This document shows, piece by piece, positions 9,107 to 42,281 of a DNA stretch of 64,000 nt; positions within the stretch are counted from its first letter, which is position 1; the number at the start of each line of letters is the position of its first letter. Origin of the DNA: an uncultured candidate division WWE3 bacterium. GTDB lineage: Bacteria > Patescibacteriota > WWE3 > UBA101185 > UBA10185. Under the pieces are notes generated by a model. That model saw only the letters and a program-made list of their open reading frames with translations. It did no database searches and had not been told where the DNA came from. The DNA lies in assembly GCA_938004185.1 (NCBI GenBank), contig CALKWN010000065.1, positions 315,111 to 379,110 on the forward strand, written 5' to 3'. Made by a program: the position numbers and the translations under genes.

Positions 9107-9664
9107 CTAGATGACTAGTTCTTCCTGCTCAAAATCTTGCGTAATATCTTCCATGTCCTCATAAAATAGTTCCGCAATTTGCCTACCCAAAGGACCTGAA
9201 AAATAGAATCCCATGGTTTCCAAACTGCTTTTAGGAAAAACAACGTCAACTCTGAGCAAGGGAATTTTTATCACACCGAATGGTTTATAGTACAACATAC
9301 AAGTACTGCCTTTACCTGAATCGAATTTTATTTGGGACTCATGCGTTACTACATGCCCCATATAAATAAGATTCGGCTCGACCTGGGATACAATAACATG
9401 CAGCGAGCATACAGCTCTATTCAACTCGCAACCTCGATGAACAACCGCACGGGTGTCAGGAGATTTGTCGTACATCAGCATGCTATCCAGCTCTTCGAAG
9501 CAAATAGGCGGTATTAAACCGAAATCGATGTAACTTTTTGATCTTTCCCTAGTTATCTCGGATAAAGTTGGGGTGACATAGTCCTTTTGCTTTCTGAATA
9601 TTGTAAACAAAAGGCATGCACCAAGAACCACCATCACGGTCCAAAAACACTGATCTTCCGTCAT
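9107..9664 (-). CDS. Hypothetical membrane-anchored protein (185 aa, one N-terminal TM)
   Basis: Hydrophobic N-terminus then a soluble domain. Followed by a possible hairpin/U-rich terminator at 9064-9097. No family recognised. Confidence 0.5.
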   Translation of the reverse strand: MTEDQCFWTVMVVLGACLLFTIFRKQKDYVTPTLSEITRERSKSYIDFGLIPPICFEELDSMLMYDKSPDTRAVVHRGCELNRAVCSLHVIVSQVEPNLIYMGHVVTHESQIKFDSGKGSTCMLYYKPFGVIKIPLLRVDVVFPKSSLETMGFYFSGPLGRQIAELFYEDMEDITQDFEQEELVI

Positions 9665-9753
9665 CTCTCCTCCTTAATATATGATTTTTATTAAAATCCG
9701 CGATAACGCATTATATTTTTGAGCGGGAAATTAGTCAACAAATCCTGATTTGT

Positions 9754-10653
9754 CTACATCTGTTGAAGACGTCTTATTCTTTCTTCTATAGGAGGGTGGG
9801 TTGAAAACCAACCCGAAACTTTTTTTTCAAAATTTTTAACGGGGCTTACGATAAATAAATGTGCGGTAGCGCCGTTGGCAGCTTCCAAAATATCGCTGTC
9901 TGATGCAAGTTTAGCTAAAGCATCCGCAAGTCCCTTCGGGTGTCTTGTTATGGATGCGGCTGTAGCATCAGCTAAGTATTCACGATTTCTGCTGATCGCG
10001 AGCTTAATCAATGTAGCAATAATAGGAGAAAGTATTAAAAATAATATTCCGATCAAAAATATTAACCCGCTTCCCGAGCCTGAGCTGGAATTCCTTCTTC
10101 TTGATCCGCCGTATAAAGCACCTCTTGTAAACCAATCCGAAATCAAAACTATTGTCCCGACCAGAATACTTACTATAGACATCAACCTTATATCGTAATT
10201 TCCTATATGAGACATTTCGTGGGCAATAACTCCCTCAAGCTCTCTTTTTTCAAGGCGCTGGAGTATGCCGGTTGTGAAACACACAACTGAATGGTTAGGA
10301 TCTCTTCCTGTAGCGAAAGCGTTCATTGAAGAATCTTGGATTATGTAAATTCGGGGTTTCGGTATTCCCGACGCTATGCTCATGTTTTCTACGAGTTTGT
10401 GTAAATCGGGGGCGTCCTCAAATTTTACTTCTCTGGCGTTAGAAATACTTAAAACGATTTTGTCAGAATTGTAATATGAAAAAACTCCCGACAACCCCGA
10501 AAAAATTAAAGCAAAACCCATAAGGGAAAATCCGCTGCCTTCAAAATAATACTCACCCAAAAACCATCCAATTGCTGAAATTACGGCAATAAAAAGCACA
10601 ATAATTACGGCTGTATCTCTTTTATTTTTACTTATCTGCTGGTACATGTTCAT
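9754..10653 (-). CDS. htpX: Zinc metalloprotease HtpX (M48 family)
   Basis: HEMSH zinc motif, multiple TM segments, C-terminal PPIEERIRRL. Start set at the MNMYQQ ATG, which abuts the upstream NUDIX stop. Confidence 0.8.
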   Translation of the reverse strand: MNMYQQISKNKRDTAVIIVLFIAVISAIGWFLGEYYFEGSGFSLMGFALIFSGLSGVFSYYNSDKIVLSISNAREVKFEDAPDLHKLVENMSIASGIPKPRIYIIQDSSMNAFATGRDPNHSVVCFTTGILQRLEKRELEGVIAHEMSHIGNYDIRLMSIVSILVGTIVLISDWFTRGALYGGSRRRNSSSGSGSGLIFLIGILFLILSPIIATLIKLAISRNREYLADATAASITRHPKGLADALAKLASDSDILEAANGATAHLFIVSPVKNFEKKVSGWFSTHPPIEERIRRLQQM

Positions 10654-14031: not shown

Positions 14032-14071
14032 TGTATAAATGTTTTCTGCCCCCGAATCAGGAGGTTTTTTA

Positions 14072-14542
14072 ATGTCCACAAACAAACAGGAAAGTACAAA
14101 TGAGAGAGACGGTTTAGCCTTAATTATTGGGGGGCTATTTATAGTAGCATTGGTTTTTGCCGCTTATAACTATTTCAATAAAAGTTCTGAAGAGTTCGAC
14201 AGGGCTCAAAACGATAACGTATTTCAGGAAGAAAATGGTACAGGAGGGGAAGAAATGCAGGGTGATTTAAACGGAGATGCTGTTACAGACTCAAACGTTA
14301 CTTCAGAAACACCCTCATTCATTGCGGCAGAGTGGGTTGCCAACAACTACAACGAAGGCGACATTCAGGGAACATCGTACACCGTAGTTTCGGGCGACAC
14401 CCTTTGGGAAATAGCTGAAGGAGCTTATGGCGACGGAACTCAGTGGACAAAAATACTGGAGGCAAATAAAGCTGACGTAGGGTTTTTAGTGAACGGTCAG
14501 CAAGCACTTATCGTACCCGGACAGGTTTTAGTACTGCCCTAA
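14072..14542 (+). CDS. LysM domain-containing membrane protein
   Basis: AGGAGG RBS 8 nt before the ATG at 14072. N-terminal TM. C-terminal LysM (YTVVSGDTLWEIA...WTKILEAN). Confidence 0.75.
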   Translation: MSTNKQESTNERDGLALIIGGLFIVALVFAAYNYFNKSSEEFDRAQNDNVFQEENGTGGEEMQGDLNGDAVTDSNVTSETPSFIAAEWVANNYNEGDIQGTSYTVVSGDTLWEIAEGAYGDGTQWTKILEANKADVGFLVNGQQALIVPGQVLVLP

Positions 14543-14627: not shown

Positions 14628-14702
14628 GCGGGTGTAGCTTAGTGGTAAAGCGTCTGCTTCCCAAGCAGAAGACCGCGGGTTCGAGCCCCGTCACCCGCTC
14701 CA
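14628..14702 (+). tRNA. tRNA-Gly (anticodon CCC), CCA encoded
   Basis: Hand-folded cloverleaf: acceptor GCGGGTG/CACCCGC, anticodon loop TTCCCAA, discriminator U. TATAAT at 14611-14616 upstream. Confidence 0.9.
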
Positions 14703-14852
14703 GAAAGGTGGTGTGAGCACCGCAAGGTGCTTAGCAGCTTTCTGGGATGGCGGGGCGAGAATGCCGGAAGGAGCATTAGCGACTGAGGCGGGGTCTCGAG
14801 CTTTACAGATTGTTTGAGCGTTAGCGAAATACAATGTGTTAAGACTTGTGAC

Positions 14853-14873
14853 CGAGCCCCGTCACCCGCTCCA
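14853..14873 (+). repeat. 21-bp exact direct repeat of the tRNA-Gly 3' end (copy of 14682..14702), att-site-like
   Basis: CGAGCCCCGTCACCCGCTCCA occurs at 14682-14702 (T-arm/acceptor/CCA of tRNA-Gly) and again at 14853-14873. The 150-bp spacer contains a GAGCACC-GCAA-GGUGCUU GNRA hairpin. Confidence 0.7.
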
Positions 14874-14983
14874 AATAGACTAACAGAATCCTTTATCCTA
14901 ACAACATGCCTGAGCTGACGACAGTGACTAACTAAAGAGGATACAACCCATCGTGCACTGACCACAAACTTTGCTTAATTTGT

Positions 14984-16540: not shown

Positions 16541-17440
16541 ATGTATATGAAACAATACTCCAAAGTAAAAAAGGCCGTTATTGCAGCTGCAGGTTACGGC
16601 ACTAGATTTCTTCCGGCGACAAAAAACCAACCGAAAGAAATGCTCCCGATAATAGACAAACCCATTATTCACTATCTTGTTGAAGAAGCCGTAAATTCGG
16701 GAATTGAAGAGATAATACTGGTGACAAGAGCAGGTAACCACATAATGGAAGATTACTTTGATAACAGATCCGAGCTTGAAACATCTCTAGAAAAAAACGG
16801 CAAACTCAAATATCTAGAAATAGTGCAATCCATTCCTCAAATGGCTAATTTTGTTTATGTCAGACAAAAAAATCACCTTCCCTACGGAAACGGCTCACCA
16901 TTAATAACAGTAAAAGAATTAATAGACGACAACGAAGCCTTCGTTTACATGTTCGGTGACGACCTTACCCTATCAAAAACGCCGGTAACCAAGCAACTCA
17001 TAGATGTTTACCACGAGCAAAACGCCACTGCGGTACTAGCAGTACAGGAAGTACCTTGGTCTGAAGTAGACAGGTACGCCACAATAAAATACAAAGAAAA
17101 TGCTCCCTATGAATTTACTATGGAAAAGGGCTTTGAAAAACTTCCAAAAGATCGGGCACCGTCAAACAAAGTTCAGTTCGGGCGTTTTGTCTTTTCCTAC
17201 GCAGTTATAGAAGAAGCCCTAAACACTCCTACAGGTAAGGACGACGAGCTTTGGCTCATAGACATCCTTAACAGGCTTGCCGAATCTGGAAAAAATGTCA
17301 TTGCCCAGCCTATAGAGGGGGAATGGCTTACGACCGGCGACCCATTAAGATATCTTAAGACTACCCTAAAATTCGCGATGGAAAGAGACGATTTGAGAGA
17401 TGACCTGAAATCGTTTATAAAAGAAGAAATAATAAAGTAA
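16541..17440 (+). CDS. galU: UTP--glucose-1-phosphate uridylyltransferase
   Basis: N-terminal AAAGYGTRFLPATKNQPKEMLPI nucleotidyl-transferase motif. ~300 aa. Confidence 0.85.
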   Translation: MYMKQYSKVKKAVIAAAGYGTRFLPATKNQPKEMLPIIDKPIIHYLVEEAVNSGIEEIILVTRAGNHIMEDYFDNRSELETSLEKNGKLKYLEIVQSIPQMANFVYVRQKNHLPYGNGSPLITVKELIDDNEAFVYMFGDDLTLSKTPVTKQLIDVYHEQNATAVLAVQEVPWSEVDRYATIKYKENAPYEFTMEKGFEKLPKDRAPSNKVQFGRFVFSYAVIEEALNTPTGKDDELWLIDILNRLAESGKNVIAQPIEGEWLTTGDPLRYLKTTLKFAMERDDLRDDLKSFIKEEIIK

Positions 17441-17442
17441 AT

Positions 17443-18180
17443 ATGGCAAAACCCAAATATAAATACAGAGGAAGAAGATACGGACAAAGCGAAGAAGAAC
17501 TGTCAAAGAAATTTATCAAAACGATGACGGCTATAATTGCTATATTTATCTTCGTTATCCTTTCTTTATTTGTGTTCGCGCCTTTCTTCGGATCGGCTTT
17601 CGGTTTGCTATCTAAAAACCGAAATAAAGATGACGGGGTGATAACTGTCAGGGTCAGGCCTCCGACGCTTTCCAATGTCCCGAATTCTACTAAAGAAAAT
17701 AAAGTGGATTTGACAGGCTTTGCGAACGAAGGTGAGACAATAAAGCTATTTGTAAACGGCCCCGAAGTTGCTCAAACAACCACCGGATCCGATGGAATTT
17801 TCAATTTTGCTGCAATTGAACTAATTAATGGTAGAAACACGGTATTTGCAAAAGCCATTAACCAGAAAAACGAAGAAAGCGGGCCAAGTGAGGTTTATAC
17901 GATAATTGTAGATACGGAAAATCCTGAAATAGAAGTAGTATCTCCTGAAGACGGTGATACCGTGCGAAACCTCGATAGAAGAATAACAATCACCGGAAAA
18001 ATAAATGAGAAAGCAACGATAAAGATAAACGACAGAATAGTAGCCCAAAAACCTGATCTTTCCTTTGAATACACTCTCGGAGTAAAGTCAGGGGAAGTTG
18101 AAATAAAAATCGTTGCAACTGATGAAGCCGGAAATTCATCAGAAGAAGAATTAAAAGTCAGATATCAAGAGTCGAGCTGA
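17443..18180 (+). CDS. Membrane-anchored extracellular protein with Ig-like beta-sandwich repeats
   Basis: N-terminal TM after a basic start, then beta-rich segments (ITVRVRPPT.., TIKLFVNGPEV.., ITITGKINEKATIKIND.., VEIKIVATDEAGN). Confidence 0.55.
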   Translation: MAKPKYKYRGRRYGQSEEELSKKFIKTMTAIIAIFIFVILSLFVFAPFFGSAFGLLSKNRNKDDGVITVRVRPPTLSNVPNSTKENKVDLTGFANEGETIKLFVNGPEVAQTTTGSDGIFNFAAIELINGRNTVFAKAINQKNEESGPSEVYTIIVDTENPEIEVVSPEDGDTVRNLDRRITITGKINEKATIKINDRIVAQKPDLSFEYTLGVKSGEVEIKIVATDEAGNSSEEELKVRYQESS

Positions 18181-19324
18181 ACAAAGTCACAAATAACACA
18201 AACATTATTTGCGGATAAAACAATGAGTTTATAAAGGACGCCTCCACTATTAAAGCCGGTATCAGACTTATTAAAATTAACCTTCTTTTATTTTTCGATA
18301 GTAAGTTATCGAAAAAAGGAAAAAACCACGCCACCGAATATATTATTGCACCGAAAATTCCCGTAGTTGCCAGAACAAATAGAAAACTGGAATCGGACCC
18401 GGCTCCGGAGCGCGACGAAATATTATCTATGTTCAAAAAACCATATTCTTTTTGGGCGTACCTGTAAGAATTAAAACCCACACCTGTCAATAAATTGTCT
18501 TTTGAAATCTCAAGCGCGTTTTGCCAGGAAACGAGACGGAATCTGGCAGAATCAGCAGGATCTGTAATTCCAGATATTCTTGTCTGCACTCTTGGAACTA
18601 AAAAGTACGCCAAAAATGCGATAAAAATTCCAAGCAACAAAAATTTGGGATATCTGAATATTCCAAACATAAAAATTATTACAGCTGTCATTGCCCAAGC
18701 ACTTCTAGAAAAAGTGAGAAATATAAAAATCGAAATTGTAGCAGCCGAGTAAATATAGATCCTTTGTTTATTCCCAGCAGATATGCGGTATAAAATCCAC
18801 ACTAAAACAGTTGCCAAATACGCACCCAAAAAGTTGGGATCAAAAAACGTTCCGGCAGCACGGCTTTTGTGGGGATCCCAACCAAGCGATGGATCAAGTA
18901 CAGAAAAATCCGGCAAAAATACAAGCTGTAAGGCTGAAGCTGCGCATAGAAAAAGGGCGGACAGGATTAGGGTTTTTTCCAACAACCGTCCTTTCAAATA
19001 ATTTAAGTTTAATAGGTTGTAAACCACAATGGCAGCAAAAATGTAAACCCCTAAACGTAGGAGGTAGGCTAAGGATATATAAATCTCGCTACTCTCGTAC
19101 TTATAGATATTTACGAAAAATGATGCGGCTGCCCAAACAAAAAAGATTAAAAATAGAATCGAGTATTTAGGAAGGCTAAATCTTTTTTTAATTAAGAGAA
19201 ATATTAAACCCGAAAACGCAAAAATAGCCGCAGCTAGATCAAAAATGTAATAGTTACCGAATCTGGCAAACTGACCTAAACTCAAAGTTGCTGTCAATAA
19301 AATTAAAAGGTATTTAAGCACCAT
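18158..19324 (-). CDS. O-antigen ligase/polymerase family (Wzy_C domain) membrane protein
   Basis: ~10 TM, conserved FSRSAW..periplasmic loop region. Its 3' end overlaps the preceding plus-strand gene by 23 nt. Confidence 0.75.
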   Translation of the reverse strand: MVLKYLLILLTATLSLGQFARFGNYYIFDLAAAIFAFSGLIFLLIKKRFSLPKYSILFLIFFVWAAASFFVNIYKYESSEIYISLAYLLRLGVYIFAAIVVYNLLNLNYLKGRLLEKTLILSALFLCAASALQLVFLPDFSVLDPSLGWDPHKSRAAGTFFDPNFLGAYLATVLVWILYRISAGNKQRIYIYSAATISIFIFLTFSRSAWAMTAVIIFMFGIFRYPKFLLLGIFIAFLAYFLVPRVQTRISGITDPADSARFRLVSWQNALEISKDNLLTGVGFNSYRYAQKEYGFLNIDNISSRSGAGSDSSFLFVLATTGIFGAIIYSVAWFFPFFDNLLSKNKRRLILISLIPALIVEASFINSLFYPQIMFVLFVTLFSSTLDI

Positions 19325-20591
19325 AGCTTTTTTTCCATACCTTTCGAACAGTAAAAATGAGCAATATTAGAATCAAAAACTCGGATATATGAGTTACGAC
19401 AGCAGAACCGTAAAATGAGTATTTCGGTATAACCACATAGTTAGCTGTAAAATTAAAGATGGCGCTGACAAGATATATATAAGGAAGGTAGCGCTGGTAG
19501 CCGAGAGTCACTATTAGCCAAGCCAATGGCTGGGTGAGACTATAAAGTACAAGACCTGCAAGAAGTATTCTCAAAGCCGGTACTGAGTTAGTAAATTCAG
19601 CACCCCCGAGAATACGAACGGCCAGGGGTGAGAATATATAACCAAGAACCGAAAAAGCCAAAGCCGCCCAAAATAAAAACTTAAGTGATTGAGTTAGGGT
19701 TTCTTTTAATTTGTCCTTTCCCTGAGTCATGTGTACAACCATGATCGGGTAAACCGAATTCATAAAAAAGGTAGGAAGGACGAGAGCCACTTCAAACACC
19801 TTGTATGGTAAGGCGTAAAGACCTACGGCTTCGTTATTGCTAATTCCCAAAAAGGACGGGACGGGAAGAACTGACAGTAACAGCGAGTCTGCTTTAAAAT
19901 TAACCTGGCTAAAAACAAACATTAACCCCAGCGGAAGTGATGATGCTAAAAGGTATTTCCAGACCTCTTTATCGGGCTTAAATTCGGGCTCAACCCCAAG
20001 TGATTTTATAAAGAAATAGTTTACGGTAAATGTTACGAGTCCTCCTAAAACATAGCTGAAACTTAACCACATCACACCTGCGTTTTGAGATGAAAGTAAA
20101 AATACCAACGCCAGAATTAGTAAATATCCTGAGAGATATCCTATTGTCGACAAATCATATCTTAGTTTTGCCTGAAATATTATGTTTGTTGTTGTAAAAA
20201 GAGCTTGTGTAAAAATTAAAAATAAACTTAAAATTATTCCCAACTTTAAACTATAGGAGTATGGAAAAAACTTTAATGCGGCTAATAACAGTAAAATAAG
20301 AAACAACGAGAAAAACATTCTTATAACTAAAATGTTTCCGAAATATTTTCCTGCCTTACTCCAATCTTTAGAAATTTCTCTAGTGGCTATGGCATTTAAT
20401 CCAAAGTCGACTATCACGAAAAACAGCGCCGGCCACGCCTGCATCAAGCTAAACTGACCGTACATTTCACGTCCGTAAGTCCTGGTGATTATTACTGTGG
20501 CTAAAACCGTGATACAAAGACTAAAAATTTTACCGAAAAGTTGGTACACGGTGTTAGCAGCAATTTTTTTGTGAGTTATGGTAAGGTTCAT
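19314..20591 (-). CDS. Polysaccharide flippase (Wzx/MOP-type)
   Basis: 12-14 TM. N-terminal region typical of Wzx-like polysaccharide biosynthesis proteins. Confidence 0.75.
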   Translation of the reverse strand: MNLTITHKKIAANTVYQLFGKIFSLCITVLATVIITRTYGREMYGQFSLMQAWPALFFVIVDFGLNAIATREISKDWSKAGKYFGNILVIRMFFSLFLILLLLAALKFFPYSYSLKLGIILSLFLIFTQALFTTTNIIFQAKLRYDLSTIGYLSGYLLILALVFLLSSQNAGVMWLSFSYVLGGLVTFTVNYFFIKSLGVEPEFKPDKEVWKYLLASSLPLGLMFVFSQVNFKADSLLLSVLPVPSFLGISNNEAVGLYALPYKVFEVALVLPTFFMNSVYPIMVVHMTQGKDKLKETLTQSLKFLFWAALAFSVLGYIFSPLAVRILGGAEFTNSVPALRILLAGLVLYSLTQPLAWLIVTLGYQRYLPYIYLVSAIFNFTANYVVIPKYSFYGSAVVTHISEFLILILLIFTVRKVWKKSYGA

Positions 20592-21808
20592 TAGTCACAA
20601 TCTCCGATTCTCATTTGATTTATTATAAAGGCAGGCGGTTTGCCGGAAATTTTCTTCATATCTCTTATCGTATCGAAATGTTTGTAAGGAACGTTATCTC
20701 CATTCAACCAGGAAAAGTGATCGAAAGGAGGCTCATATTTTATTGTAAAGGGCATCACGGCTCTCACTCTATCATCCTTCAACCACACGTCTTCAAAAGC
20801 TTTTTTAGTGTATTCTGCAACTGTTTCTACAGGAAGGTAGCTCGGGTTGTAATTTACGCCTTCAGCGTGTGCCCAACCTGTTTCCGTTATAAATACCGGT
20901 AATTCTTTTTCCACTTTAAGAACTACTTCAAGAAAACTTAGTTCGGTTTCGTAAGCTTTTATGCTCCATCTACCTTCGTTATAGGGACTTCCGGAGAAAT
21001 TGGGTTGGGGATAGGGGTGTGAAGCCCAGCCGTCTAATTTTGAGAATATTCCCGGAACAGCGATTTCCATTCTTCTCATATACTCAAGAGAATCTAAATG
21101 GTTAGAGTCTGTTGGCGCAGAAACATTGAATGCGCCGTTTAGCATAAAGAAGTCCGCATTTTCCTGTTTGAAGGTATCGATAGTGAAATTTAAAATTTCA
21201 GCGTACTCGTCAGGATCTACCCGACCGTACCAGAAATTTTTATCGTTAGGCTCGTTGTACACACTAACATATCTGTATCTTATCGGCCAAACAAATCTGT
21301 TAAGAAACTCTGCGGCCTTTACCGTCTGTTCCTTATAGTTATCCGTATCAACATCCCAAAGCTGTATTACAGGGATTAAATGTTTTTCGCGTAATTTTCT
21401 AAAAACCCCGTCCCATTTTTCGAAAGCGGTGTCCTTTACATTGTATGGAATCAAAACATATCCCCAGTCTCCTTTTCCGGTGTTAACAAGTTCCTCGGCA
21501 CGATCAAAAAACTCGTCTTCTTCCGCGTATATATAAATCCCGAACTTATTGTTTTCTTCCCACAATGGATCGCTTCCGGTGTATGTATAAAACTCAACCT
21601 CTTCTACCTGATTGCACTCATCGTTGTTTTCTGCAACCCTCATCCTATCGACGTAAACCTGCCTTTTTTGATCATCCGACAACCTCTCTTCTTCGAGATA
21701 CTTAGCGTATTCTCTATAAAAAATCATAGCTGTAACTACCGCTACGCTTAAAAAAACAAATAGCAGAATTGTACGAAAACGGTATTTTCTAATTTTTAGT
21801 ACCGGCAC
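20591..21808 (-). CDS. Membrane-anchored glycoside hydrolase, GH5-like (clan GH-A)
   Basis: N-terminal TM. NEP acid/base motif (VYNEPND), H-x-Y (SHPY) and nucleophile motif ITETGW at GH5-consistent spacing. Confidence 0.65.
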   Translation of the reverse strand: MPVLKIRKYRFRTILLFVFLSVAVVTAMIFYREYAKYLEEERLSDDQKRQVYVDRMRVAENNDECNQVEEVEFYTYTGSDPLWEENNKFGIYIYAEEDEFFDRAEELVNTGKGDWGYVLIPYNVKDTAFEKWDGVFRKLREKHLIPVIQLWDVDTDNYKEQTVKAAEFLNRFVWPIRYRYVSVYNEPNDKNFWYGRVDPDEYAEILNFTIDTFKQENADFFMLNGAFNVSAPTDSNHLDSLEYMRRMEIAVPGIFSKLDGWASHPYPQPNFSGSPYNEGRWSIKAYETELSFLEVVLKVEKELPVFITETGWAHAEGVNYNPSYLPVETVAEYTKKAFEDVWLKDDRVRAVMPFTIKYEPPFDHFSWLNGDNVPYKHFDTIRDMKKISGKPPAFIINQMRIGDCD

Positions 21809-21888
21809 TACCCCATTCTATCATTTATAAGCCAACACATTGAAAAATTCGGCTGTATTTATCGGCCCAATTACCTTAAAATTACAAG

Positions 21889-23124
21889 GTGAGGTCCGAA
21901 GTAAAAGTTATCGTAATACTATTCTCAATCGTACTGGTTCTCGGCGGGCTTAGTCTTTATATCAGTAAAGTCGATTACAAGTATCGCCCGCTAACACCGT
22001 TTTCTAATTCATTTGATATTCTTTCGCTTTTTAAGGAAAGGAAAAAACCTTCTTATAGAATTTACGGTTACCTTCCGTACTGGACATTAGGTAGCATGGA
22101 ATATCTTCAATTAGACAGACTCACTGATATCGCATACTTCGGTTTATATATAAACGGAAAAGGTGAGTTTGTTAAAACCGTCGAAGGGGAAGATGGGAGT
22201 TTAATAACAGAGCCTGGCTATAGAAATTGGAAACAGGAAGAGAAAATTAAACAGTTAATTGAAGCGTGTAAAAAATATGGTGTAAATTTTGCACTTACTG
22301 TTATAGCTCACAGAGACACCGACAATGATGCATTTTTAACATGCAGAGAGTGCTGGGACACACTTTTGAATAACGTGATCACAGAGCTTGATGAAAAGGG
22401 AATCACGGATGTAAATCTGAACTTTGAGTATGCTGAATATACCGATATTGAAATAGCGGTGAAATTTACCGAATTTACAGAATATATGAATAGGAAGCTA
22501 GACGAAAGATACGGCAATTCAAATGTTGTGGTGTCAGCTTTTGCTGATTCAGCTGTTAAAAATAGGGTTAGCTCTGATTTAGAAAATTTAGCAAAACAAA
22601 GCGACGGAATATTTATTATGGGATATGATTTCCACCGCCCTACTTCGGATAAAGCAGGACCTGTCTCACCTATAGGAGGTAAGGGGGTTCATGCCGAATA
22701 CGACATAGAAACTATGATGAAAGACTATCTCTCGGTCGTTCCTCCCAATAAAATAATTCTGGGTGTTCCGTATTACGGCTATAACTGGGTTGTGGGGCAA
22801 AATGAAAAATATGCTGAAAGAATTGACGGAAGCGAAGAAATTGGTTTTTCACAATCACAAACCTTTGAGGCTGTTATGGACACATTAATAGATGTTAAGC
22901 CCAATGTTTTGTGGGACGAGCTGGGACAAGTTCCTTACTTCAGCTATGTTAGCCCCGAAACAGGTCAGCAAAGACAGGTTTTTTACGAAAACGAAAAATC
23001 TCTGAGAATAAAATATCAAATGGCTAAAAATAATAATTTAATGGGTGTAGGAATATGGGCACTAGGCTACGACGGCGGCTATACCGAACTTTGGAATCTT
23101 TTGTACGATGAATTTATTGACTAG
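21889..23124 (+). CDS. Membrane-anchored GH18 (chitinase-like) family protein, catalytic motif variant D-x-N-x-N-x-E
   Basis: N-terminal TM. GH18 hallmarks MGYDFH and GVPYYGYNW. DVNLNFEY sits in place of DxxDxDxE. Apparent GTG start. Confidence 0.7.
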   Translation: MRSEVKVIVILFSIVLVLGGLSLYISKVDYKYRPLTPFSNSFDILSLFKERKKPSYRIYGYLPYWTLGSMEYLQLDRLTDIAYFGLYINGKGEFVKTVEGEDGSLITEPGYRNWKQEEKIKQLIEACKKYGVNFALTVIAHRDTDNDAFLTCRECWDTLLNNVITELDEKGITDVNLNFEYAEYTDIEIAVKFTEFTEYMNRKLDERYGNSNVVVSAFADSAVKNRVSSDLENLAKQSDGIFIMGYDFHRPTSDKAGPVSPIGGKGVHAEYDIETMMKDYLSVVPPNKIILGVPYYGYNWVVGQNEKYAERIDGSEEIGFSQSQTFEAVMDTLIDVKPNVLWDELGQVPYFSYVSPETGQQRQVFYENEKSLRIKYQMAKNNNLMGVGIWALGYDGGYTELWNLLYDEFID

Positions 23125-23152
23125 AGGATATAATTAACTTTTAATTATTAGG

Positions 23153-24193
23153 ATGGAAAATTCTGACCGGTCAAATTCAACAGCACAGAACGGAAACGGC
23201 ACACCTCTGCCTAAAAAGGTAGCTATTGTATACAGTGAAATAAAAAGAGAATACTTTCCTACGGAAGAACAATACATAACGGAAGCGGATGCATTTGAGG
23301 ATGCACAACTTATTTCGAAATATGTTGAAAGACTGGGTGTTGAATGTTCAATACTACCCGGAGATGCAAACCTTAGCGAAGAATTAAAAAAATTTAAGCC
23401 TGAGATGGTTTTTAATCTTGCGGATTCCATAAAGGGCAATGAGTATTTGTCTTCCGCTGTCCCAGGCATTTTAGAGTCACTTGAAATACCATATACCGGT
23501 GCAGACATTTTAGGACTTGCCCTATGCTACAACAAATTTTTAGTTAAAAAACTTTTACATCAATTTAAAATTCCGGTTCCTAACTTTCAATTATTTACTT
23601 CTGCCGTAGATCCTATTGATCCTCACCTAAGATTTCCTCTTATTACAAAGCTAAACGAGATACACGGCGGTGTAGAAATAACCCAAGATTCAGTTGTAGA
23701 AAATGAAAAAGCTCTGAGAGCAAGAATAAAATATTTAAATGAGGTGTATAAACAGCCTATTTTAGTTGAAGAGTTTATCGTAGGAAAAGAGATTACCGCT
23801 TACGTTCTTGAGGGACTTAACAGAAAAGTGTACATGGCTGAAAAAGTCTTCAACAAACCTGACGATAAGTATGTTTTTTTAACTTTTGAAGATCAGTGGA
23901 TAAATAAAGAGGAGACGTTCAAATACGAAAAATTTGAAAACTCTTATCTGAAAGATTTGGTAATAAGCGCTTTCGACGCAATAAAAATGATGGATTACGG
24001 AAAATTTGATATTAGACAGGACGGTTCTGGTAGATATTTCTTTATAGACGCAAACGCCAACCCGGCTTTCGGTCCAAAAGAGAGCAAAACTGCAATGGGG
24101 TTAATACTGGAAGATCTATATAAAATACCATTTATCGACATTTTGAAAAGACTGATGCTTAATACTCTTAGAGGGCCGCTTAAGGATTTTTAA
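23153..24193 (+). CDS. ATP-grasp ligase, D-alanine--D-alanine ligase-like
   Basis: Ddl-like N-domain and ATP-grasp C-terminal motifs (..IRQDGSGRYFFIDANANPAFGP). Confidence 0.7.
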   Translation: MENSDRSNSTAQNGNGTPLPKKVAIVYSEIKREYFPTEEQYITEADAFEDAQLISKYVERLGVECSILPGDANLSEELKKFKPEMVFNLADSIKGNEYLSSAVPGILESLEIPYTGADILGLALCYNKFLVKKLLHQFKIPVPNFQLFTSAVDPIDPHLRFPLITKLNEIHGGVEITQDSVVENEKALRARIKYLNEVYKQPILVEEFIVGKEITAYVLEGLNRKVYMAEKVFNKPDDKYVFLTFEDQWINKEETFKYEKFENSYLKDLVISAFDAIKMMDYGKFDIRQDGSGRYFFIDANANPAFGPKESKTAMGLILEDLYKIPFIDILKRLMLNTLRGPLKDF

Positions 24194-33551: not shown

Positions 33552-34739
33552 TTACTTCTGTCTTAAAAATGTAGGTATATCAAACCCGGTTCCGTAATCT
33601 TCCTCTTCGGCATCATCGGGTTTCCACATATCCGCAGGCAGTTTGGGTTTTTTCTCTTCAGTAACCGGTGTTTCCGGCTTTACTGGCTGCATTATAGGAG
33701 GTTGAACAGGAGTTTCAGGTTTGGGTCTATTCTGTACTTGGCTGTAGTGCTTTTCCACATATCCGGCCACAGAATCATCTTCTTCAGGAACCTCAAAACC
33801 GGTTGCAATTACCGTTATCTTAAGCTGACCTGCAAGTTCATCGTCTATGGATGTACCGAAAATGATATCAGCTTCTTCATTTGCAATACTCCTAATAATA
33901 TTTGCCGCTCTGTCTACTTCTCTCATTGTAAGATCGGGCCCGCCCGAAATATTGAACAATATGCCTTTTGCTCCCTCAACGGATTGCTCCAGCAAAGGAG
34001 AAGATATTGCCGCTCTGGCTGCAACTTCAGCACGATTCTCTCCGGTACCTATACCTATGCCCATTAGTGCAGTCCCGGCGTCCTTCATAATAGTTTTAAC
34101 ATCCGCGAAATCTACATTAATAAGTCCCGGCATGACAATCAAATCAGAAATACCCTGTACACCTTGGTTTAAAACGCTGTCCGACAACCTAAAGGCATCT
34201 ATTATGGACATATCTTCGTCAGCAACTTCTAATAGCTTCTGGTTCGGAATAGTAATAAGAGCATCCACTTCTTTTCTAAGTTCTTCCATGCCTCTGTCGG
34301 CAGCACGCATTCTCTGTATACCTTCGAAATGAAAAGGTTTCGTTACAACCCCTATGGTAAGGGCACCCGACTCTTTGGCGACCTTTGCAACAACAGGAGA
34401 TGCCCCGGTACCTGTACCGCCACCCAAACCTGCAGTTATAAACACCATGTTTGCACCCTCGAGATTATTTTTTATCAGATCCATAGATTCTTCGGCCGCT
34501 TTCTTTCCGATTTCAGGATTAGATCCTGCACCCAGACCCTGTGTAAGTTCTTGACCGATAGGTATTTTTATTACTGCTTTGTTTATGGAAAGATCTTGGG
34601 CGTCTGTGTTAATTGCAACAAACTCAACACCCCTTATCTGATTGGACTCGATCATCGAGTTTATTACGTTTCCGCCGGCACCGCCGACACCGACGACGCG
34701 AATTTTTGCAAATCGTTCTATTTCTGGTTTAACTTGCAT
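33552..34739 (-). CDS. ftsZ: Cell division GTPase FtsZ
   Basis: GGGTGTG tubulin signature. Pro/Glu-rich C-terminal linker. Confidence 0.95.
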
Positions 34740-34845
34740 TGCCTTTACACCGATCGGAAAAATAGTTTCCGAAACGGTACTGACATAATACCAAATTTAT
34801 TTATCAACACTTAATTTTTTAGGGCAGTTAAAAATTCTACTATAC

Positions 34846-34874
34846 AAAAAACCCTAAAAACTTTCTTTTTAGGG
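34846..34874 (-). terminator. Intrinsic terminator/attenuator between ftsA and ftsZ, overlapping the ftsA stop codon
   Basis: Minus-strand RNA: CCCUAAAAA-gaaag-UUUUUAGGG followed by U6. The ftsA UAA lies within the 5' stem. A second CUGCCCUAAAAA copy follows 24 nt downstream. Confidence 0.5.
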
Positions 34875-36125
34875 CAGAAAAGATTTAAGTTTACCGAAAA
34901 TCTTAAAAAAACTTTTGTTCATATTACCCCTCTTGTCATCAAAAGACAATAACTGACTGCCTCTAAAAAGTTTTACGCCGTACAAAACAGCTCCTACTCC
35001 GGCAGAAGAAGAGGGACCCTGAATTTCATCTATTAACCCCGTCACACCTCTCGGAATTCCTAAACGTACGGGCATTTTTAAATTTAACTTGGCATTTCTT
35101 TCTACATTTGCAGTGAGGGCACCGCCCCCCGTAATTACAACACCAGCTGGTAACTTACCTGTCAGATTAACTTTCTGAACTTCCAGAGCAATAAGTCTGA
35201 AAATTTCTTCCAGGCGTGCATCAAGAATCTTGTAAAGCATTTGTCTGGGAAGACGGTCGATCTCGAGACCGAATTCTGAAACATCAAAATCCTCATCTTT
35301 TTTTACGGCATCTGAATTTTTTGAAATTGCGGCTTCGTTGCTGAGCCTTATTTTTATGCGTTCGGCGTCCTCTAAACGGGATCTTAGTCCTATGGCCAAA
35401 TCACTCGTAATAAGCTTTCCGCCTATCGGAAGAACGGCTGAGTGAACCGGACTTCCGTCGAGAAATGCAATCATTGAGGTAGTACCGCCCCCTATATCAA
35501 CCAACAAAGTACCGAGCTCTTTTTCCGTATCAGTCAGTACAGCTTCTGCTGAAGCTACACCCGTGTATACCATTTCTTCGACGTTTACTCCAACCTGATT
35601 AACACATTTCAAAATGTTTCTTAAAGCTATGGAAGCGCCGTGAATAATGTTGGTTTCAACCTCTAACCTTACACCTGACATGCCGACAGGATCTTTTATA
35701 CCTTCCTGAGAATCTATTGAAAAATCTCTTGGAATAACATGGATGATCTCGCGTGTAGAGGGAAGGGAAACCGCCTGTGCCGCCTCAATAACTCTCGTAA
35801 CATCTTCTTTTGATATCTCGCTGGTCTGGCTCGGAGAGACAGCAACAACACCATGCGAATTAAGGGTTTCTATATGGCCTCCGTTTATGGTCACAAAAGC
35901 ACTTGAAACCGAAACGCCGGCCATTCTTTCAGCCTTCTCTATGCTGGCAGCAATAGCCTCAACTGCGCTATCGATATCAACAACATTTCCTTTATTTACA
36001 CCTTTTGAAGGAACTTCGCCCGAAACACCTATTACAGACACCTTCGACTCAGAGACCGATGCGATGGTCGTACCCACCTTAGTGGAGCCGATGTCTATTC
36101 CTGTAATTATCTTTTCTTTGGGCAT
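34869..36125 (-). CDS. ftsA: Cell division protein FtsA
   Basis: Actin-like ATPase motifs (GIDIGSTKV, DIGGGTT). Confidence 0.92.
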   Translation of the reverse strand: MPKEKIITGIDIGSTKVGTTIASVSESKVSVIGVSGEVPSKGVNKGNVVDIDSAVEAIAASIEKAERMAGVSVSSAFVTINGGHIETLNSHGVVAVSPSQTSEISKEDVTRVIEAAQAVSLPSTREIIHVIPRDFSIDSQEGIKDPVGMSGVRLEVETNIIHGASIALRNILKCVNQVGVNVEEMVYTGVASAEAVLTDTEKELGTLLVDIGGGTTSMIAFLDGSPVHSAVLPIGGKLITSDLAIGLRSRLEDAERIKIRLSNEAAISKNSDAVKKDEDFDVSEFGLEIDRLPRQMLYKILDARLEEIFRLIALEVQKVNLTGKLPAGVVITGGGALTANVERNAKLNLKMPVRLGIPRGVTGLIDEIQGPSSSAGVGAVLYGVKLFRGSQLLSFDDKRGNMNKSFFKIFGKLKSFLP

Positions 36126-36139
36126 ATTGCGGTTAAAAC

Positions 36140-36991
36140 CTACTCATATAATACTATTACTTTATCATATCGTAAATCAATTTTAATTACGGATTTTCCC
36201 TCGAGAAGGAGATTTTTATATATCTTTTCCAACTTTTTAACTGACTCTGATACATTTTTCAAATTACTTATGAATATCTCTGTAGGCCCCAAATAAAGCT
36301 TTGAGTACCTTTCGCTGAAACTTACACTACTTACATCAAGCCCGGCCTGACCGGCTTCGGTCAAAATTTCAACACTAACCGGCACTATGTTAGCCTCTAA
36401 AAAAGTACCGACATTAATATCCCCGCTATAGACTATAAGAGGCAGTCCCATGAATTCCTCGGATACTTCTCCTAAAACGTAACCCTCAACATCGATAAGA
36501 TAGTAAGGATTGTCTTTTCCTTTACTGATAATAGCTAATGGCACCCTTTCGTCTATTTTTATTACCAAATTATCCGGATAGTCTACTGATACATCAATAT
36601 TTTTTGCACCGAGAAAATTTGATTTTAATGTTTCTGCAATCTCAGAAGAGTTTAGAAAAAAAATACTGTGCCCTCCCATTTTCTGATAAACCATGCTGTT
36701 AAAATCTTCCACATTTACGAAAGTGCCTCCTCCTATTACCGATATATTTTTAACTGTGAATTTAGGATTTAAATAAATATACTGATACAAAAAGTAGCCT
36801 ATAAACCCAAGTGTTAAAAAAACAATAACTATCTTAATAATAATTCGGTATTTTCTGGCAAGGACACGTGGGTTTCTAATACCTCTTTTTCTTCCTCTTA
36901 TCTTATTTAATAAGATCTGGTTCCCGCTGGTTTGTACAGGATATTTTTTACTGCCCAGATTTTTTCTTGAGCTTAATGGTTTCATTGGCAA
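36140..36991 (-). CDS. ftsQ: Cell division protein FtsQ/DivIB (POTRA)
   Basis: Basic N-terminus, single TM, POTRA-like region. Position between murG and ftsA. Confidence 0.75.
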   Translation of the reverse strand: MPMKPLSSRKNLGSKKYPVQTSGNQILLNKIRGRKRGIRNPRVLARKYRIIIKIVIVFLTLGFIGYFLYQYIYLNPKFTVKNISVIGGGTFVNVEDFNSMVYQKMGGHSIFFLNSSEIAETLKSNFLGAKNIDVSVDYPDNLVIKIDERVPLAIISKGKDNPYYLIDVEGYVLGEVSEEFMGLPLIVYSGDINVGTFLEANIVPVSVEILTEAGQAGLDVSSVSFSERYSKLYLGPTEIFISNLKNVSESVKKLEKIYKNLLLEGKSVIKIDLRYDKVIVLYE

Positions 36992-38063
36992 TTATTCCTG
37001 CGGCATCTAAGCTTATTAATCCGGAAGCCTCTGGATCATTTAGCTTGTAGCTACTTAAAGAAAGTAGCATCTTTTTCACATTTTCAACCAAAATACTCGG
37101 AGTTAAATCCTTTTCTTCGATAATTTCCGCAATTCCATAGTTCTTAAGTATTTCTGCATTTCTCATTTGTTCGTTATGACTTACCCAAGGTATTGGTATT
37201 AAAATTGCGGGTTTTTCCAAGGCAAGTAATTCTGTAACCGTGTGTGCTCCTGACCTACCTACAACTAAAGCTGACTTATTAAACGCTTCGCCTATCTCAT
37301 CATCAAAAATAAATTTTCTTAAAAAATACTTACCATTCGACAAACCTCTGACCTCTTCATACATATCCCTAAGCTGCTCGAAATCATTAAATCTAGAATG
37401 ATCACCACACTGGTGAATTATGTTAGCCAGCGCTAAAAGTTCTGCCAAAGATTCCCTCACCACATCGTTTATCAAATGGGAGCCTGATTTTCCTGCAGTA
37501 ATATAAATGGTTGGTAGATCATTTAGGGTTGAGAACGAATCAGACCCAATTTCAAAAACGGATTTTCGTATCGGTACCCCTGAATAAACTATTTTTTTCG
37601 CAGGAAAGTATTTTTCTGAGTCTTTCCAACCTATGCAAATTTTTTTAACAAAGTTTGCTAAAAGCTTGTTCGCGTAGCCTGTAACTACAGTTTGCTCATG
37701 TGTAATTGAAGGAATTCCCAAAAACCAACCTGAAATGACAGTGGGTACGGCAAGATAACCACCGAAAGACAGTATCACATCGGGTTTTATTTCTCTAAGC
37801 CACTTAAATGACTGAATAAAACCGAGAGGTATTCTAGCCAAACGTATCGGATTGTATGTTTTATAAAATTTTCCGGCTTTAAGATCGTAAAAAGGTATGC
37901 CGAGAGAAGTAATCTCCTTATACTCAAGGCTTTCATTTTTATTACTTGCCGCAGAATATTTATGCCCGAACCAATACATAAGAACATCTGGATATCTGTT
38001 TTTTAAAACATCTATTACTGGTAGTGCAGAACTGTGATGTCCACCCGTGATTACTATTTTCAT
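36948..38063 (-). CDS. murG: Undecaprenyl-PP-MurNAc-pentapeptide GlcNAc transferase
   Basis: GT28 N- and C-domains. G-loop GGHHSSALP. Confidence 0.88.
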   Translation of the reverse strand: MKIVITGGHHSSALPVIDVLKNRYPDVLMYWFGHKYSAASNKNESLEYKEITSLGIPFYDLKAGKFYKTYNPIRLARIPLGFIQSFKWLREIKPDVILSFGGYLAVPTVISGWFLGIPSITHEQTVVTGYANKLLANFVKKICIGWKDSEKYFPAKKIVYSGVPIRKSVFEIGSDSFSTLNDLPTIYITAGKSGSHLINDVVRESLAELLALANIIHQCGDHSRFNDFEQLRDMYEEVRGLSNGKYFLRKFIFDDEIGEAFNKSALVVGRSGAHTVTELLALEKPAILIPIPWVSHNEQMRNAEILKNYGIAEIIEEKDLTPSILVENVKKMLLSLSSYKLNDPEASGLISLDAAGIIANETIKLKKKSGQ

Positions 38064-39229
38064 TTAGAAATCTCCCTTCCTACATTTGCAAGAATTCCGA
38101 GACCCATAAGACTAAAAACCATGCTCGAACCTCCATAGGATATTAAAGGTATTGGGACGCCGGTCAGCGGTAAAATTTGTGTCATTGCACCGATGTTAAC
38201 AAAAAATTGTAATCCTATCCAAGACGTAACACCGGATGCTAACAAACGGCCTCTTAAAGACTTTGCATGCTTTGCAATATCAAATCCCAGATAGATTAAA
38301 TAGGAAAATGCAAAAATTACGACGACCGTACCTGCAAATCCGAATTCTTCACCAATAATCGCAAAAATTGAATCTGATGCTACCTCGGGCAAGTAATAGT
38401 ATTTTTGGCGCGATTGGCCGAATCCTACTCCGAACATGCCGCCGGAACCAAGAGCAATTTGAATTTGCTTTATATGGTAACCTTCACCGCGGTCATCGGC
38501 GTCAAATCCCTTAATTTGAGTCAGCAACCTATCTCTTCTGTATGGAGAAAGGATAATTAGTACCGTTGCCATAATTAAAAGTACCGGAGCAAGCATGAAA
38601 AGGGGTTTTATCGAAGACCCGGAAGCAAAATAAACTACCGTTCCTATTGCCGCAACCATGACCGCAGTAGACATGTTAGGTTGTGCAATTATTAAAACGA
38701 AAAATATACCCGTAATTACGGCATAGAGTTTAAAAGGATTTTTATTATCCTGAAGGACCTTAGGAAGCATTGTAGATAAATACAATATCAATGTAAGTTT
38801 AGTTAACTCGCCGGGTTGAAAACCCACCACACCCAATATAGGAATTTTCGGAAGAGGCGGACCGTTTAAGTAAAGCCATCTGTTCGCTCCGTTTATGCAA
38901 GGTGCAAAAAAAATGTTCCATGAGCAAGGTAGAACTGAAACGATTGCCAGAGCAACAAGAAATATTAATGTTGCTGTAAAAAACAACGCGGCTATCTTGT
39001 CAATTTTTTTATAATCCAGTTTGTAAAAAAAGGTAAATCCTAATAGACCTATAACTACCCAACCTAGCTGAAGAAAAACAAACCTATACGGATCGTTATA
39101 CAGACTATCCGAGTGAATTATTGTGGAATCGGCAATTATAATTATGCCGAAAAGAAGAAACATGAGAACAAGAAAAACGAAAGGCCTGTCTTTTCTTGGC
39201 GATGTTTGGACAGATTTTGATTTAATCAT
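38060..39229 (-). CDS. ftsW: SEDS-family peptidoglycan polymerase FtsW/RodA
   Basis: 10 TM. Conserved C-terminal GGSS...MG region. Confidence 0.85.
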   Translation of the reverse strand: MIKSKSVQTSPRKDRPFVFLVLMFLLFGIIIIADSTIIHSDSLYNDPYRFVFLQLGWVVIGLLGFTFFYKLDYKKIDKIAALFFTATLIFLVALAIVSVLPCSWNIFFAPCINGANRWLYLNGPPLPKIPILGVVGFQPGELTKLTLILYLSTMLPKVLQDNKNPFKLYAVITGIFFVLIIAQPNMSTAVMVAAIGTVVYFASGSSIKPLFMLAPVLLIMATVLIILSPYRRDRLLTQIKGFDADDRGEGYHIKQIQIALGSGGMFGVGFGQSRQKYYYLPEVASDSIFAIIGEEFGFAGTVVVIFAFSYLIYLGFDIAKHAKSLRGRLLASGVTSWIGLQFFVNIGAMTQILPLTGVPIPLISYGGSSMVFSLMGLGILANVGREISK

Positions 39230-39232
39230 AAA

Positions 39233-41870: not shown

Positions 41871-42281
41871 TTATTTCTTCTGCGTACAAAGCCACTCAAA
41901 AAAAGTATATACCATTGAGAGGATAAAGGCAGAAAATAAGGCAGACCAGAAGACCGTAAGGCTTTTTGATGGTAGCATAAAGCCGAAAATAATCAAATCA
42001 GACAAAGTGGTCTCAAGTATTGTAAAACCGGGTAAAAACAGTGTTAAAACATACAAAGAAAGTGTAGACAATATAGTTGCAATAAATAAAAAGCCGATCC
42101 CCTTATGAGGAAGACCGAATGTCATTAAAAGAGGCTTTCCGATAAAAAAAAGAAGAGTAAGGGCTAAAGCCAGTACAACAAAAGCTTTTATATCTTCACC
42201 GTAGTATAAAGAAGATAAAACGTAGTTAGTGCAGTACAAAGATATAAGGACAAAAACAAAAGTTCTTATAACCCTCTTCAT
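41871..42281 (-). CDS. Hypothetical 4-TM membrane protein
   Basis: Four hydrophobic helices. No family recognised. Confidence 0.5.
   Translation of the reverse strand: MKRVIRTFVFVLISLYCTNYVLSSLYYGEDIKAFVVLALALTLLFFIGKPLLMTFGLPHKGIGFLFIATILSTLSLYVLTLFLPGFTILETTLSDLIIFGFMLPSKSLTVFWSALFSAFILSMVYTFFEWLCTQKK

Follow-up and report, generated by a model that had tools for sequence, protein, structure and literature searches.

Two membrane-anchored glycoside hydrolases lie next to genes for a Wzx-type flippase and a Wzy_C-family protein in a 64-kb stretch of DNA from an uncultured candidate division WWE3 bacterium (contig CALKWN010000065.1; the whole stretch is called the window here, and all coordinates refer to it). 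In our judgement the chances are about even that this cluster is a Wzx/Wzy-type envelope-glycan assembly module of WWE3 with processing enzymes of its own. The cluster is not a categorically new system but one more example of a type already familiar, the Wzx/Wzy locus accompanied by a PslG-like hydrolase. One of the two hydrolases, a member of family GH18, departs naturally from the mechanism of its family, by a change that is fixed across crown WWE3: the Asp two residues before the catalytic Glu is replaced by Asn. No description of such a fixation was found in the open-access literature searched.

An earlier note on this DNA, made from the sequence alone, had described an envelope-glycan cluster of seven genes. 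All seven open reading frames (ORFs) are present where it had placed them, and five (galU, Ig-like, Wzy_C, flippase and ATP-grasp) are backed by Pfam or NCBIfam matches. On the plus strand, a galU-like gene for UTP-glucose-1-phosphate uridylyltransferase (16541–17440; PF00483, E = 4e-25; TIGR01099, 238.6 bits, under the cut-off of 326.8) ends with a stop codon 2 nt upstream of the start of a gene for a membrane-anchored protein with two Ig-like domains (17443–18180; Big_13 and Glucodextran_B folds). The minus strand carries an operon in which a gene for a 405-aa PslG/GH39-like hydrolase of clan GH-A comes first (20591–21808), then that of the Wzx-type MOP flippase (19314–20591; PF01943 (Polysacc_synt), E = 1.7e-16), and last that of a polytopic Wzy_C-family protein, a glycan polymerase or ligase (18158–19324; PF04932, E = 1.3e-17). 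The stop codon of the GH-A gene overlaps the Wzx ATG by 1 nt (TAATG), the Wzy_C gene, starting with ATG, shares 11 nt with the end of the flippase gene, and the minus-strand genes are predicted to be translationally coupled. The gene for the GH18 enzyme, of the SleL/YdhD-like subfamily, occupies positions 21889–23124 of the plus strand and is followed on the same strand by a gene for a Ddl-family ATP-grasp ligase (23153–24193; PF07478, E = 4e-11; Ddl models, 78–90 bits against cut-offs of 243–246).

The two hydrolase genes stand back to back and are divergent, with an intergenic region of 80 bp (21809–21888) between the GH-A operon and the GH18 gene. Each protein has one N-terminal hydrophobic helix, in agreement with the description of the pair as divergent and N-terminally anchored. 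The GTG start noticed for the GH18 gene was confirmed, and the GH-A gene also begins with GTG; in each ORF this is the sole canonical start codon. The promoter consensus scan found no convincing sigma-70 consensus in the 80-bp region, and the promoter and terminator consensus scans returned fewer sites than were found in shuffled controls. Both hydrolase genes can be regarded as real because they have more than 1600 and more than 2200 homologues, which are annotated as Patescibacteria or candidate division WWE3. The closest GH18 relatives (one genome per species, 80 loci) are 74–77% identical and include the complete genome RAAC2_WWE3_1 at 77%.

Conservation of the cluster was analyzed by tblastn of all seven proteins against 85 related loci, numbered in the style L001–L085 (e.g. 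L063). The Ig-like, Wzy_C, Wzx, GH-A and GH18 genes were found together in essentially every locus with a GH18 identity of at least 38% and enough flanking sequence, that is, in about 60 species-level genomes; at loci where the GH18 identity was 32–36% this search did not find the module. The comparison proposed in the earlier note thus yielded a conserved core of five genes: the Ig-like protein, Wzy_C, Wzx, the PslG-like hydrolase and GH18. The galU and ATP-grasp genes, counted at first among those that bracket the two hydrolases, fared differently. The former is a frequent but not universal neighbour, adjoining the module in about half of the 85 loci (a count that includes short contigs and near-duplicate loci). 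The latter is incidental and outside the conserved unit, as it was detected in only 7 of the 85 loci, adjacent and on the same strand in 5, and only in the closest relatives. The Ig-like gene adjoins the module in essentially all WWE3 loci; in L071–L073 the Ig–galU pair has been relocated to the other side of GH18 with its adjacency kept. In a basal WWE3 clade (L063:3540-5497, L068:3509-5502, L075:3472-5437) GT2 and GT4 glycosyltransferase genes are located in the operon between flippase and Wzy_C, as is usual for glycan loci of the Wzx/Wzy type. No homologue of this GT2/GT4 pair was found in the window, and the pair is missing from the crown clade too. The WWE3 loci that carry the module come from groundwater, sludge, marine biofilm and other sources, and its conservation is equal across them.

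Some peculiarities of single loci were seen in the same comparison. In L024 (2101–4194) a 697-aa ORF with no Pfam match is inserted between the Ig-like gene and Wzy_C. In L034, a 3.3-kb single-cell contig, the flippase gene is directly beside GH18 with no GH-A gene between them; it is the sole such locus and represents either a real loss or an assembly artefact. Many contigs with the WWE3-type module (L012, L015–L019 and others) are titled 'uncultured Candidatus Saccharibacteria', and several outgroup contigs among L078, L080 and L082–L085 are titled 'Gammaproteobacteria'; both look like automated mislabels.

The first hydrolase had been called GH5-like on the strength of its NEP and ITETGW landmarks. 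These are present, but the assignment to GH5 was rejected: no GH5 hidden Markov model (HMM) matched the window protein or its 72 relatives. In the window protein no Pfam or NCBIfam family was matched and PF00150 (GH5, Cellulase) was absent at E up to 0.01, and none of the 72 relatives matched PF00150 at E up to 1. Sub-threshold matches to Glyco_hydro_39 (PF01229) were obtained for nine of the 72 relatives, with a best E of 3.2e-4, and for the window protein itself there was none. Weak sequence matches were limited to PslG, across the NEP motif, and to GH17, GH26 and GH39 entries. When the structural model was searched with Foldseek, the three PslG entries ranked first, about 1000-fold better than the next, so that PslG and GH39 are the closest structural neighbours. 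The AlphaFold model (pLDDT 92) consists of a transmembrane (TM) helix at about residues 9–34, a long stalk helix extending to residue 60, and a (beta/alpha)8 barrel. At the end of beta4 lies the acid/base motif Y184-N185-E186-P-N188 (21245–21259, minus strand), which aligns with W-N-E-P-N of PslG, and at the end of beta7 the nucleophile motif F-I-T-E309-T-G-W (residues 306–312; 20873–20893, minus strand), which aligns with I-S-E-T-G-W of GH17. Y-N-E is invariant in 71 loci, while the Pro of "NEP" varies, and FITETGW is present in 70 of the 71. The barrel, the N-E acid/base pair at beta4 and the nucleophile Glu at beta7 are those of clan GH-A; since both landmarks define the clan, they do not specify GH5. 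Sequence and model together indicate that the protein is a clan GH-A retaining glycosidase, PslG/GH39-like, which current family models miss. Its residues C65 (21614–21616) and C404 (20597–20599), located at the two ends of the domain, are invariant and probably form an extracytoplasmic disulfide.

Assignment of the second hydrolase to GH18 was upheld. The landmarks MGYDFH and VPYYGYNW reported for it are both present, and PF00704 is matched at 110.6 bits against a gathering cut-off of 29.6 (E = 1.7e-31). The AlphaFold 2 model (pLDDT 92) shows a TIM barrel with an alpha+beta insertion at about residues 296–354, preceded by a TM helix (residues 3–27) and a disordered linker (29–48). Foldseek placed SleL (4s3k) at the top, with E of about 1e-23 to many GH18 structures, and profile searches matched YdhD at 1e-25 and YaaH at 4e-23. 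A C-x-x-C pair, C152-R-E-C155 (22342–22353), is invariant in WWE3 GH18s and absent from the outgroup; it too probably forms an extracytoplasmic disulfide. The single N-terminal helices, whose cleavage was judged by eye and not by a signal-peptide predictor, and the invariant Cys pairs fit an extracytoplasmic location of both hydrolases. Pfam detected neither LysM nor any other peptidoglycan-binding module in the GH18 protein, and no informative wall-binding accessory domain in ten long members of the subfamily.

The catalytic motif of this protein, at the end of beta4, is T173-D174-V-N176-L-N178-F-E180 (22405–22428, plus strand), as located by phmmer and by profile alignments to solved GH18 structures. 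Aligned with D-G-I-D-L-D-W-E of ChiW, its first Asp is changed to Thr and the second and third to Asn, while the Glu is kept. The same segment aligns with R-D-I-H-F-D-F-E of YaaH/SleL, G-G-V-T-I-D-F-E of YdhD and D-G-V-V-I-D-F-E of 4wiw. The possibility that the Asp-to-Asn reading came from a mis-aligned motif, which the earlier note had itself raised, was rejected, as four independent alignments give one and the same register. Both Asp-to-Asn changes in the D-V-N-L-N-F-E originally reported are therefore real, but seven residues had been set against an eight-residue consensus and the register was off by one at the first Asp: Asp174 sits one position after the canonical first Asp, as it does in SleL. 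E180, opposite which ChiW, YdhD and SleL have their catalytic Glu, is invariant in 77 orthologues; N176, N178, F179 and E180 are invariant in 76 GH18 relatives.

The two Asn residues have different histories. Asn at the second Asp position is found in 134 of 150 representatives of the GH18 subfamily (50% clustering), 124 of which read N-x-D-x-E, and N176 is thus normal for the whole subfamily. The Asp two residues before the Glu is kept in 136 of the 150, and it is this D-x-E residue that is Asn178 in the window protein and, invariably, in the crown WWE3 clade. In a neighbour-joining tree of 77 orthologues (50 crown sequences with Asn, 19 basal WWE3 sequences with Asp and 8 outgroup sequences with Asp) N178 marks essentially one crown clade, represented by 50 of the 69 syntenic species-level WWE3 genomes sampled. 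The 19 basal orthologues with Asp178 share the same gene neighbourhood, and the 8 outgroup sequences also have Asp. N178 was derived once within WWE3 and then fixed in the crown clade. Outside it, two distant members of the subfamily (P0305 and P0326) read N-x-N-F-E while nested among D-x-E relatives at 44–56% identity, which shows that the switch beside the Glu recurred independently in two distant lineages.

The remainder of the active site has not decayed after the switch. The beta6 motif M244-G-Y246-D247 (22618–22629, plus strand), which in model GH18s contacts the acetamido group and the –1 sugar, has M244, Y246 and D247 invariant in all 77 orthologues, outgroups included. Within the Asn clade E180, M244, Y246, D247, Y296 and W390 are 100% conserved (W390 where aligned), so that the –1 subsite, beta6 M-x-Y-D and the beta8 Trp, is complete; the pocket residues H141, D220, H249 and W300 are at least as conserved there as in the Asp clade. 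Asn178 is encoded by AAT in 31 loci and by AAC in 27, indicating that synonymous change accumulated while the residue stayed fixed. Reversion to Asp would take one transition, yet no reversion was seen. Divergence of GH18 from close relatives amounts to a dN (non-synonymous) of 0.15–0.35, the only measure given because dS (synonymous) is saturated even there. Position 178 is the sole perfectly discriminating column between the two clades; among the next best is position 61, where a change of F61 to Tyr (Y61 at 22069–22071) co-varies with it, Tyr being present in 86% of the Asn clade versus 21% of the syntenic Asp clade. Y61 aligns with the conserved beta1 Tyr of chitinases, and the change may be compensatory within a hydrogen-bond network. 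Fixation with both codons in use, together with the invariant Glu180 and –1 pocket, argues for selection on Asn178 and not for decay into a lectin. The protein looks like a functional enzyme with a GH85-like Asn-Glu dyad.

Such a dyad has precedents. The endo-beta-N-acetylglucosaminidases of family GH85 have no second carboxylate; instead, a conserved Asn precedes the acid/base Glu by two residues, and its imidic tautomer is the proposed acting form (PMC8113915, PMC10570127). Endo-A, Endo-M and Endo-D have this Asn by nature, employ it in substrate-assisted catalysis and are noted for transglycosylation (PMC8113915, PMC10570127). The likeness is confined to the N-x-E dyad: GH85 is another family, whose members cut the chitobiose cores of N-glycans, while HMM and fold both place the WWE3 protein in GH18 and Pfam returns PF00704 only, with no GH85 match. 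In the Serratia marcescens mutants ChiA-D313N and ChiB-D142N the same residue underwent the same change as at N178, and transglycosylation was increased (PMC5505975). These are laboratory mutants of processive chitinases, whereas the WWE3 change is natural, ancient and fixed, in a subfamily which already has Asn as its second Asp and His for the +1 Trp. By analogy with both cases, the crown-WWE3 enzyme is possibly biased towards transglycosylation.

As to the substrate, chitinase activity, which the earlier note had predicted to be altered or reduced, was not favoured. The nearest solved relatives of the GH18 protein, SleL, YaaH and YdhD, are spore-cortex peptidoglycan enzymes. The Bacillus proteins SleL/YaaH and YdhD are its best sequence and fold matches, with the same TIM barrel bearing an alpha+beta insertion, the same 'x-D' shift of the first Asp and, at the second Asp position, a residue other than Asp; they differ in having D-x-E where the crown clade has N-x-E, and the WWE3 protein has an N-terminal membrane anchor but no LysM repeats and belongs to a non-sporulating organism. 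In place of the beta3 S-x-G-G-W of chitinases the WWE3 protein has T-V-I-A-H; His141 stands where chitinases have the Trp of the +1 subsite and does not vary within the Asn clade. In outgroup lineages of the candidate phyla radiation (CPR) (L078–L080, L082–L085; ~9190–10350) a Peptidase_S11 DD-carboxypeptidase gene is directly 3' of GH18 on the same strand in 7 of 8 loci; GH18s of those loci read D-G-x-N-x-D-x-E, and the two genes appear to be a conserved pair linked to peptidoglycan. Chitin is unlikely as the substrate because of the cortex-enzyme relatives, His141 in place of Trp and the DD-carboxypeptidase neighbour in the sister clade. The relatives, that neighbour and the downstream Ddl-family ligase point instead to peptidoglycan or another wall glycan containing N-acetylhexosamine (HexNAc). 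In the RAAC2 WWE3 genome the peptidoglycan pathway is incompletely identifiable (PMC3812714), so that the ATP-grasp protein could either be a Ddl that has diverged or act as a ligase on some other substrate.

The export side of the module consists of a MOP flippase and a polytopic Wzy_C protein, the pair by which a Wzx/Wzy pathway is recognised. The flippase matches Polysacc_synt at 61 bits and PF03023 (MurJ) at 28 bits, with weak matches to MatE and to NF041871 Wzx_EPS and none to the MurJ NCBIfam models. It is the sole MOP flippase among the surveyed window genes, the division/cell-wall block of which contains no MurJ-type flippase. The Wzy_C protein has many hydrophobic segments. The RAAC genomes, WWE3 included, contain no genes for lipid A or lipopolysaccharide (LPS), and RAAC2 WWE3 is rich in glycosyltransferases (PMC3812714, Kantor et al.). 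The lack of lipid A/LPS genes in RAAC2 WWE3 argues that Wzy_C is not an LPS ligase (WaaL) and is either a polymerase or a ligase for a non-LPS acceptor. The Ig-like protein has a basic N-terminus, one TM helix at about residues 20–57, and a weak match to PamR of a CPR pilus system (E = 3e-4; 19.8 bits against a cut-off of 300).

The nearest well-described counterpart is the Psl system of Pseudomonas aeruginosa, in which PslK is the Wzx, PslJ the Wzy, and PslG a periplasmic endoglycosidase that cuts the polymer of its own pathway, a proposed "failsafe" (PMC13434223). The WWE3 GH-A protein has PslG as its best structural match, its NEP acid/base motif aligns, its catalytic domain is extracytoplasmic, and its gene shares an operon with a MOP flippase and Wzy_C in about 60 genomes. 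On the other hand, identity to PslG is only about 15–17% and no GH39 HMM is matched above threshold. Neither the cluster nor the other window genes surveyed showed PCP/OPX partners (PslE/PslD), an absence to be expected should the WWE3 cell have no outer membrane, and the window's cluster differs from Psl also in having no phosphoglycosyltransferase or glycosyltransferase.

A scheme for the module can be proposed from the observed identities, folds, residue conservation, operon structure, synteny and polarity of the Asp-to-Asn change; what we infer from them is which substrates are used, in which direction and with what ratio of hydrolysis to transfer catalysis runs, and that GH18 is functionally coupled to the operon. 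The Wzx-type flippase would turn lipid-linked sugar units outward, and Wzy_C would polymerise them or transfer them to an acceptor other than LPS. The galU product, often encoded alongside, would supply UDP-glucose, and the exported glycan would probably contain glucose. The tethered GH-A enzyme would trim or release the polymer of its own module in a PslG-like role. GH18, coming from a peptidoglycan-associated lineage, would be a second tethered wall enzyme, which cleaves or transglycosylates a HexNAc linkage in the cell's own wall (peptidoglycan strands or a HexNAc secondary polymer) where new glycan is inserted. Its Asn-x-Glu dyad would preserve substrate-assisted catalysis and probably shift it from hydrolysis towards transglycosylation. 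Remodelling of the cell's own glycan layer, one of the roles considered in the earlier note, is the one that synteny favours.

Several points weigh against this scheme. For both hydrolase families the substrates and activities are putative. An initiating phosphoglycosyltransferase or glycosyltransferase was found neither in the cluster nor, MraY and MurG excepted, elsewhere among the window genes surveyed, and no phosphoglycosyltransferase was identified in the window or in the relatives' loci examined; the Wzx/Wzy pathway is therefore incomplete as seen in the window. The weak match of the flippase to MurJ keeps a role in lipid II export possible. A search of PDB sequences gave no informative solved relatives for Wzy_C, the flippase or the Ig-like protein, so that polymerase, ligase and O-oligosaccharyltransferase roles of Wzy_C are not distinguished. 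GH18 is linked to the module by adjacency alone, and in small syntenic CPR genomes adjacency can persist between uncoupled genes. Finally, Asp-to-Asn changes of the ChiB D142N type cut hydrolysis strongly in model chitinases, and a weakly active or binding-only GH18 is possible.

The last point leads to the explanation that the GH18 of the Asn178 clade is a dead glycan-binding protein resembling chi-lectins, perhaps a sensor or scaffold for the glycan machinery. The Asp beside the catalytic Glu is critical in model GH18 chitinases, some inactive GH18 proteins such as narbonin and XIP-I retain the Glu, and the canonical beta3 S-x-G-G-W is replaced here. Chi-lectins such as YKL-40 and Ym1 likewise combine the GH18 fold with substitutions in DxxDxDxE, Ym1 having Asn at the second Asp position; they lose the catalytic Glu, however, whereas Glu180 is invariant and the pocket is not relaxed. 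No relaxation followed the switch, E180, Y246, D247 and W390 being invariant over 50 diverged genomes, and the pocket is at least as conserved as in the Asp clade, with both Asn codons in use and the one-transition reversion absent. An N-x-E dyad is catalytically competent in GH85 (PMC8113915). The lectin was rejected as the leading explanation because of this active-site invariance and codon use; a lectin-like protein or decayed chitinase, as the earlier note had it, is improbable. A more substantial share of probability, still well below even, goes to GH18 as a peptidoglycan N-acetylglucosaminidase, an autolysin of growth or division that works independently of Wzx and Wzy_C and lies beside them through inherited synteny in a streamlined genome. 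This would accord with the cortex enzymes as closest solved relatives, the operonic DD-carboxypeptidase of the sister clade (7 of 8 loci), the Ddl-family ligase 3' of GH18 in the window's closest relatives, and a division/cell-wall (dcw) block and penicillin-binding proteins (PBPs) 10–27 kb from the gene. It accords less well with the company of GH-A, Wzx and Wzy_C, in which GH18 stays down to 38% identity and through local rearrangements, with the divergent region of 80 bp that gene and operon have in common, or with the lack of LysM or any other peptidoglycan-binding module, unlike SleL.

Two further explanations turn on the target of the module. An action of the two hydrolases on the wall of a host or partner cell, put forward at the outset, would make them weapons or feeding enzymes that an epibiotic bacterium displays on its outside; this is very improbable. 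In its favour, CPR genomes are small and CPR bacteria are commonly taken for episymbionts, both enzymes have an outward-facing catalytic domain, and surveys of CPR genomes mostly interpret GH18 as an enzyme that degrades chitin or peptidoglycan (PMC9868632, PMC7143001). Nothing favouring an attack on another cell was found in the cluster, however: a single helix and a short linker (~20–40 residues) tether each enzyme, Pfam detected no substrate-binding module in either, the GH-A gene is by its predicted translational coupling joined to the flippase and Wzy_C genes, basal lineages carry glycosyltransferases inside the operon, and the equal retention of the module in WWE3 of many habitats argues against host-specific arms. 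Alternatively, the module could glycosylate protein, with Wzy_C as an O-oligosaccharyltransferase of PglL/TfpO type decorating the Ig-like protein, pilins or an S-layer, and with the hydrolases editing the glycan. The Wzy_C family does include such transferases, and the Ig-like gene is adjacent in essentially all WWE3 loci, even when relocated, with its product weakly matching PamR. Moreover, for the RAAC genomes, which have no LPS genes, Kantor et al. proposed that the surface consists of glycoproteins or of an S-layer bearing glycans, and in all four of these genomes they report predicted pilins along with genes for type IV pili (PMC3812714). Yet the PamR match reaches 19.8 of the required 300 bits, and PslG-type hydrolases are known in polymer pathways and not in protein glycosylation; this is the least probable of the explanations considered.

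The envelope-glycan module remains the reading we prefer, and an extension of it, to which we give little probability, is that the crown-WWE3 GH18 is a dedicated wall transglycosylase with a GH85-style dyad which, together with the PslG-like enzyme, grafts the Wzx/Wzy_C glycan onto peptidoglycan N-acetylglucosamine or cross-links wall glycans. If this is true, bacterial walls would here be assembled by a glycoside-hydrolase route that does not depend on LCP phosphotransferases and has its counterpart in the Crh, Gas and GH17 transglycosylases of fungi.

Other genes of the window bear on the envelope as well. On the minus strand there are a division/cell-wall block (FtsZ, FtsA, FtsQ-like, MurG, FtsW, MraY and MurA; 33552–41649), a class A PBP (48441–50663) and, at the window edge, a PBP transpeptidase ORF (63325–63969). 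LCP-family enzymes typically join glycopolymers to peptidoglycan, and the presence of an LCP-family (LytR_cpsA_psr) protein (61865–62923, plus strand) suggests that the cell is able to attach them. A phosphoglucomutase (58758–60131, minus strand) adds a second step of UDP-glucose supply. A small LysM protein (14039–14542, plus), a Phage_holin_4_2-family membrane protein (41871–42281, minus) and a transglutaminase-like membrane protein (43678–45393, plus) are also encoded. Four tRNA genes (Asp, Gly, Thr and Val) flank the cluster; a 108-aa ORF (14639–14965, minus) which overlaps tRNA-Gly (14628–14702, plus) is almost certainly spurious.

WWE3 and other CPR bacteria are uncultured and the way they build their envelopes is largely obscure. 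Few multi-gene units are retained whole throughout a CPR phylum; the module described here is one of them, and for this reason is likely to produce or maintain a central structure of the cell surface. In surveys of CPR genomes GH18 is as a rule counted towards chitin degradation, and the PslG-like enzyme is left without annotation; both practices probably misstate the carbon-degrading potential of these organisms in metagenomes. In fixing the Asp-to-Asn change, the same substitution that engineers use to favour transglycosylation, nature has carried out an experiment on the GH18 mechanism; the crown-WWE3 enzyme is a candidate for a naturally occurring transglycosylase, and one on which ideas about substrate-assisted catalysis can be tested.

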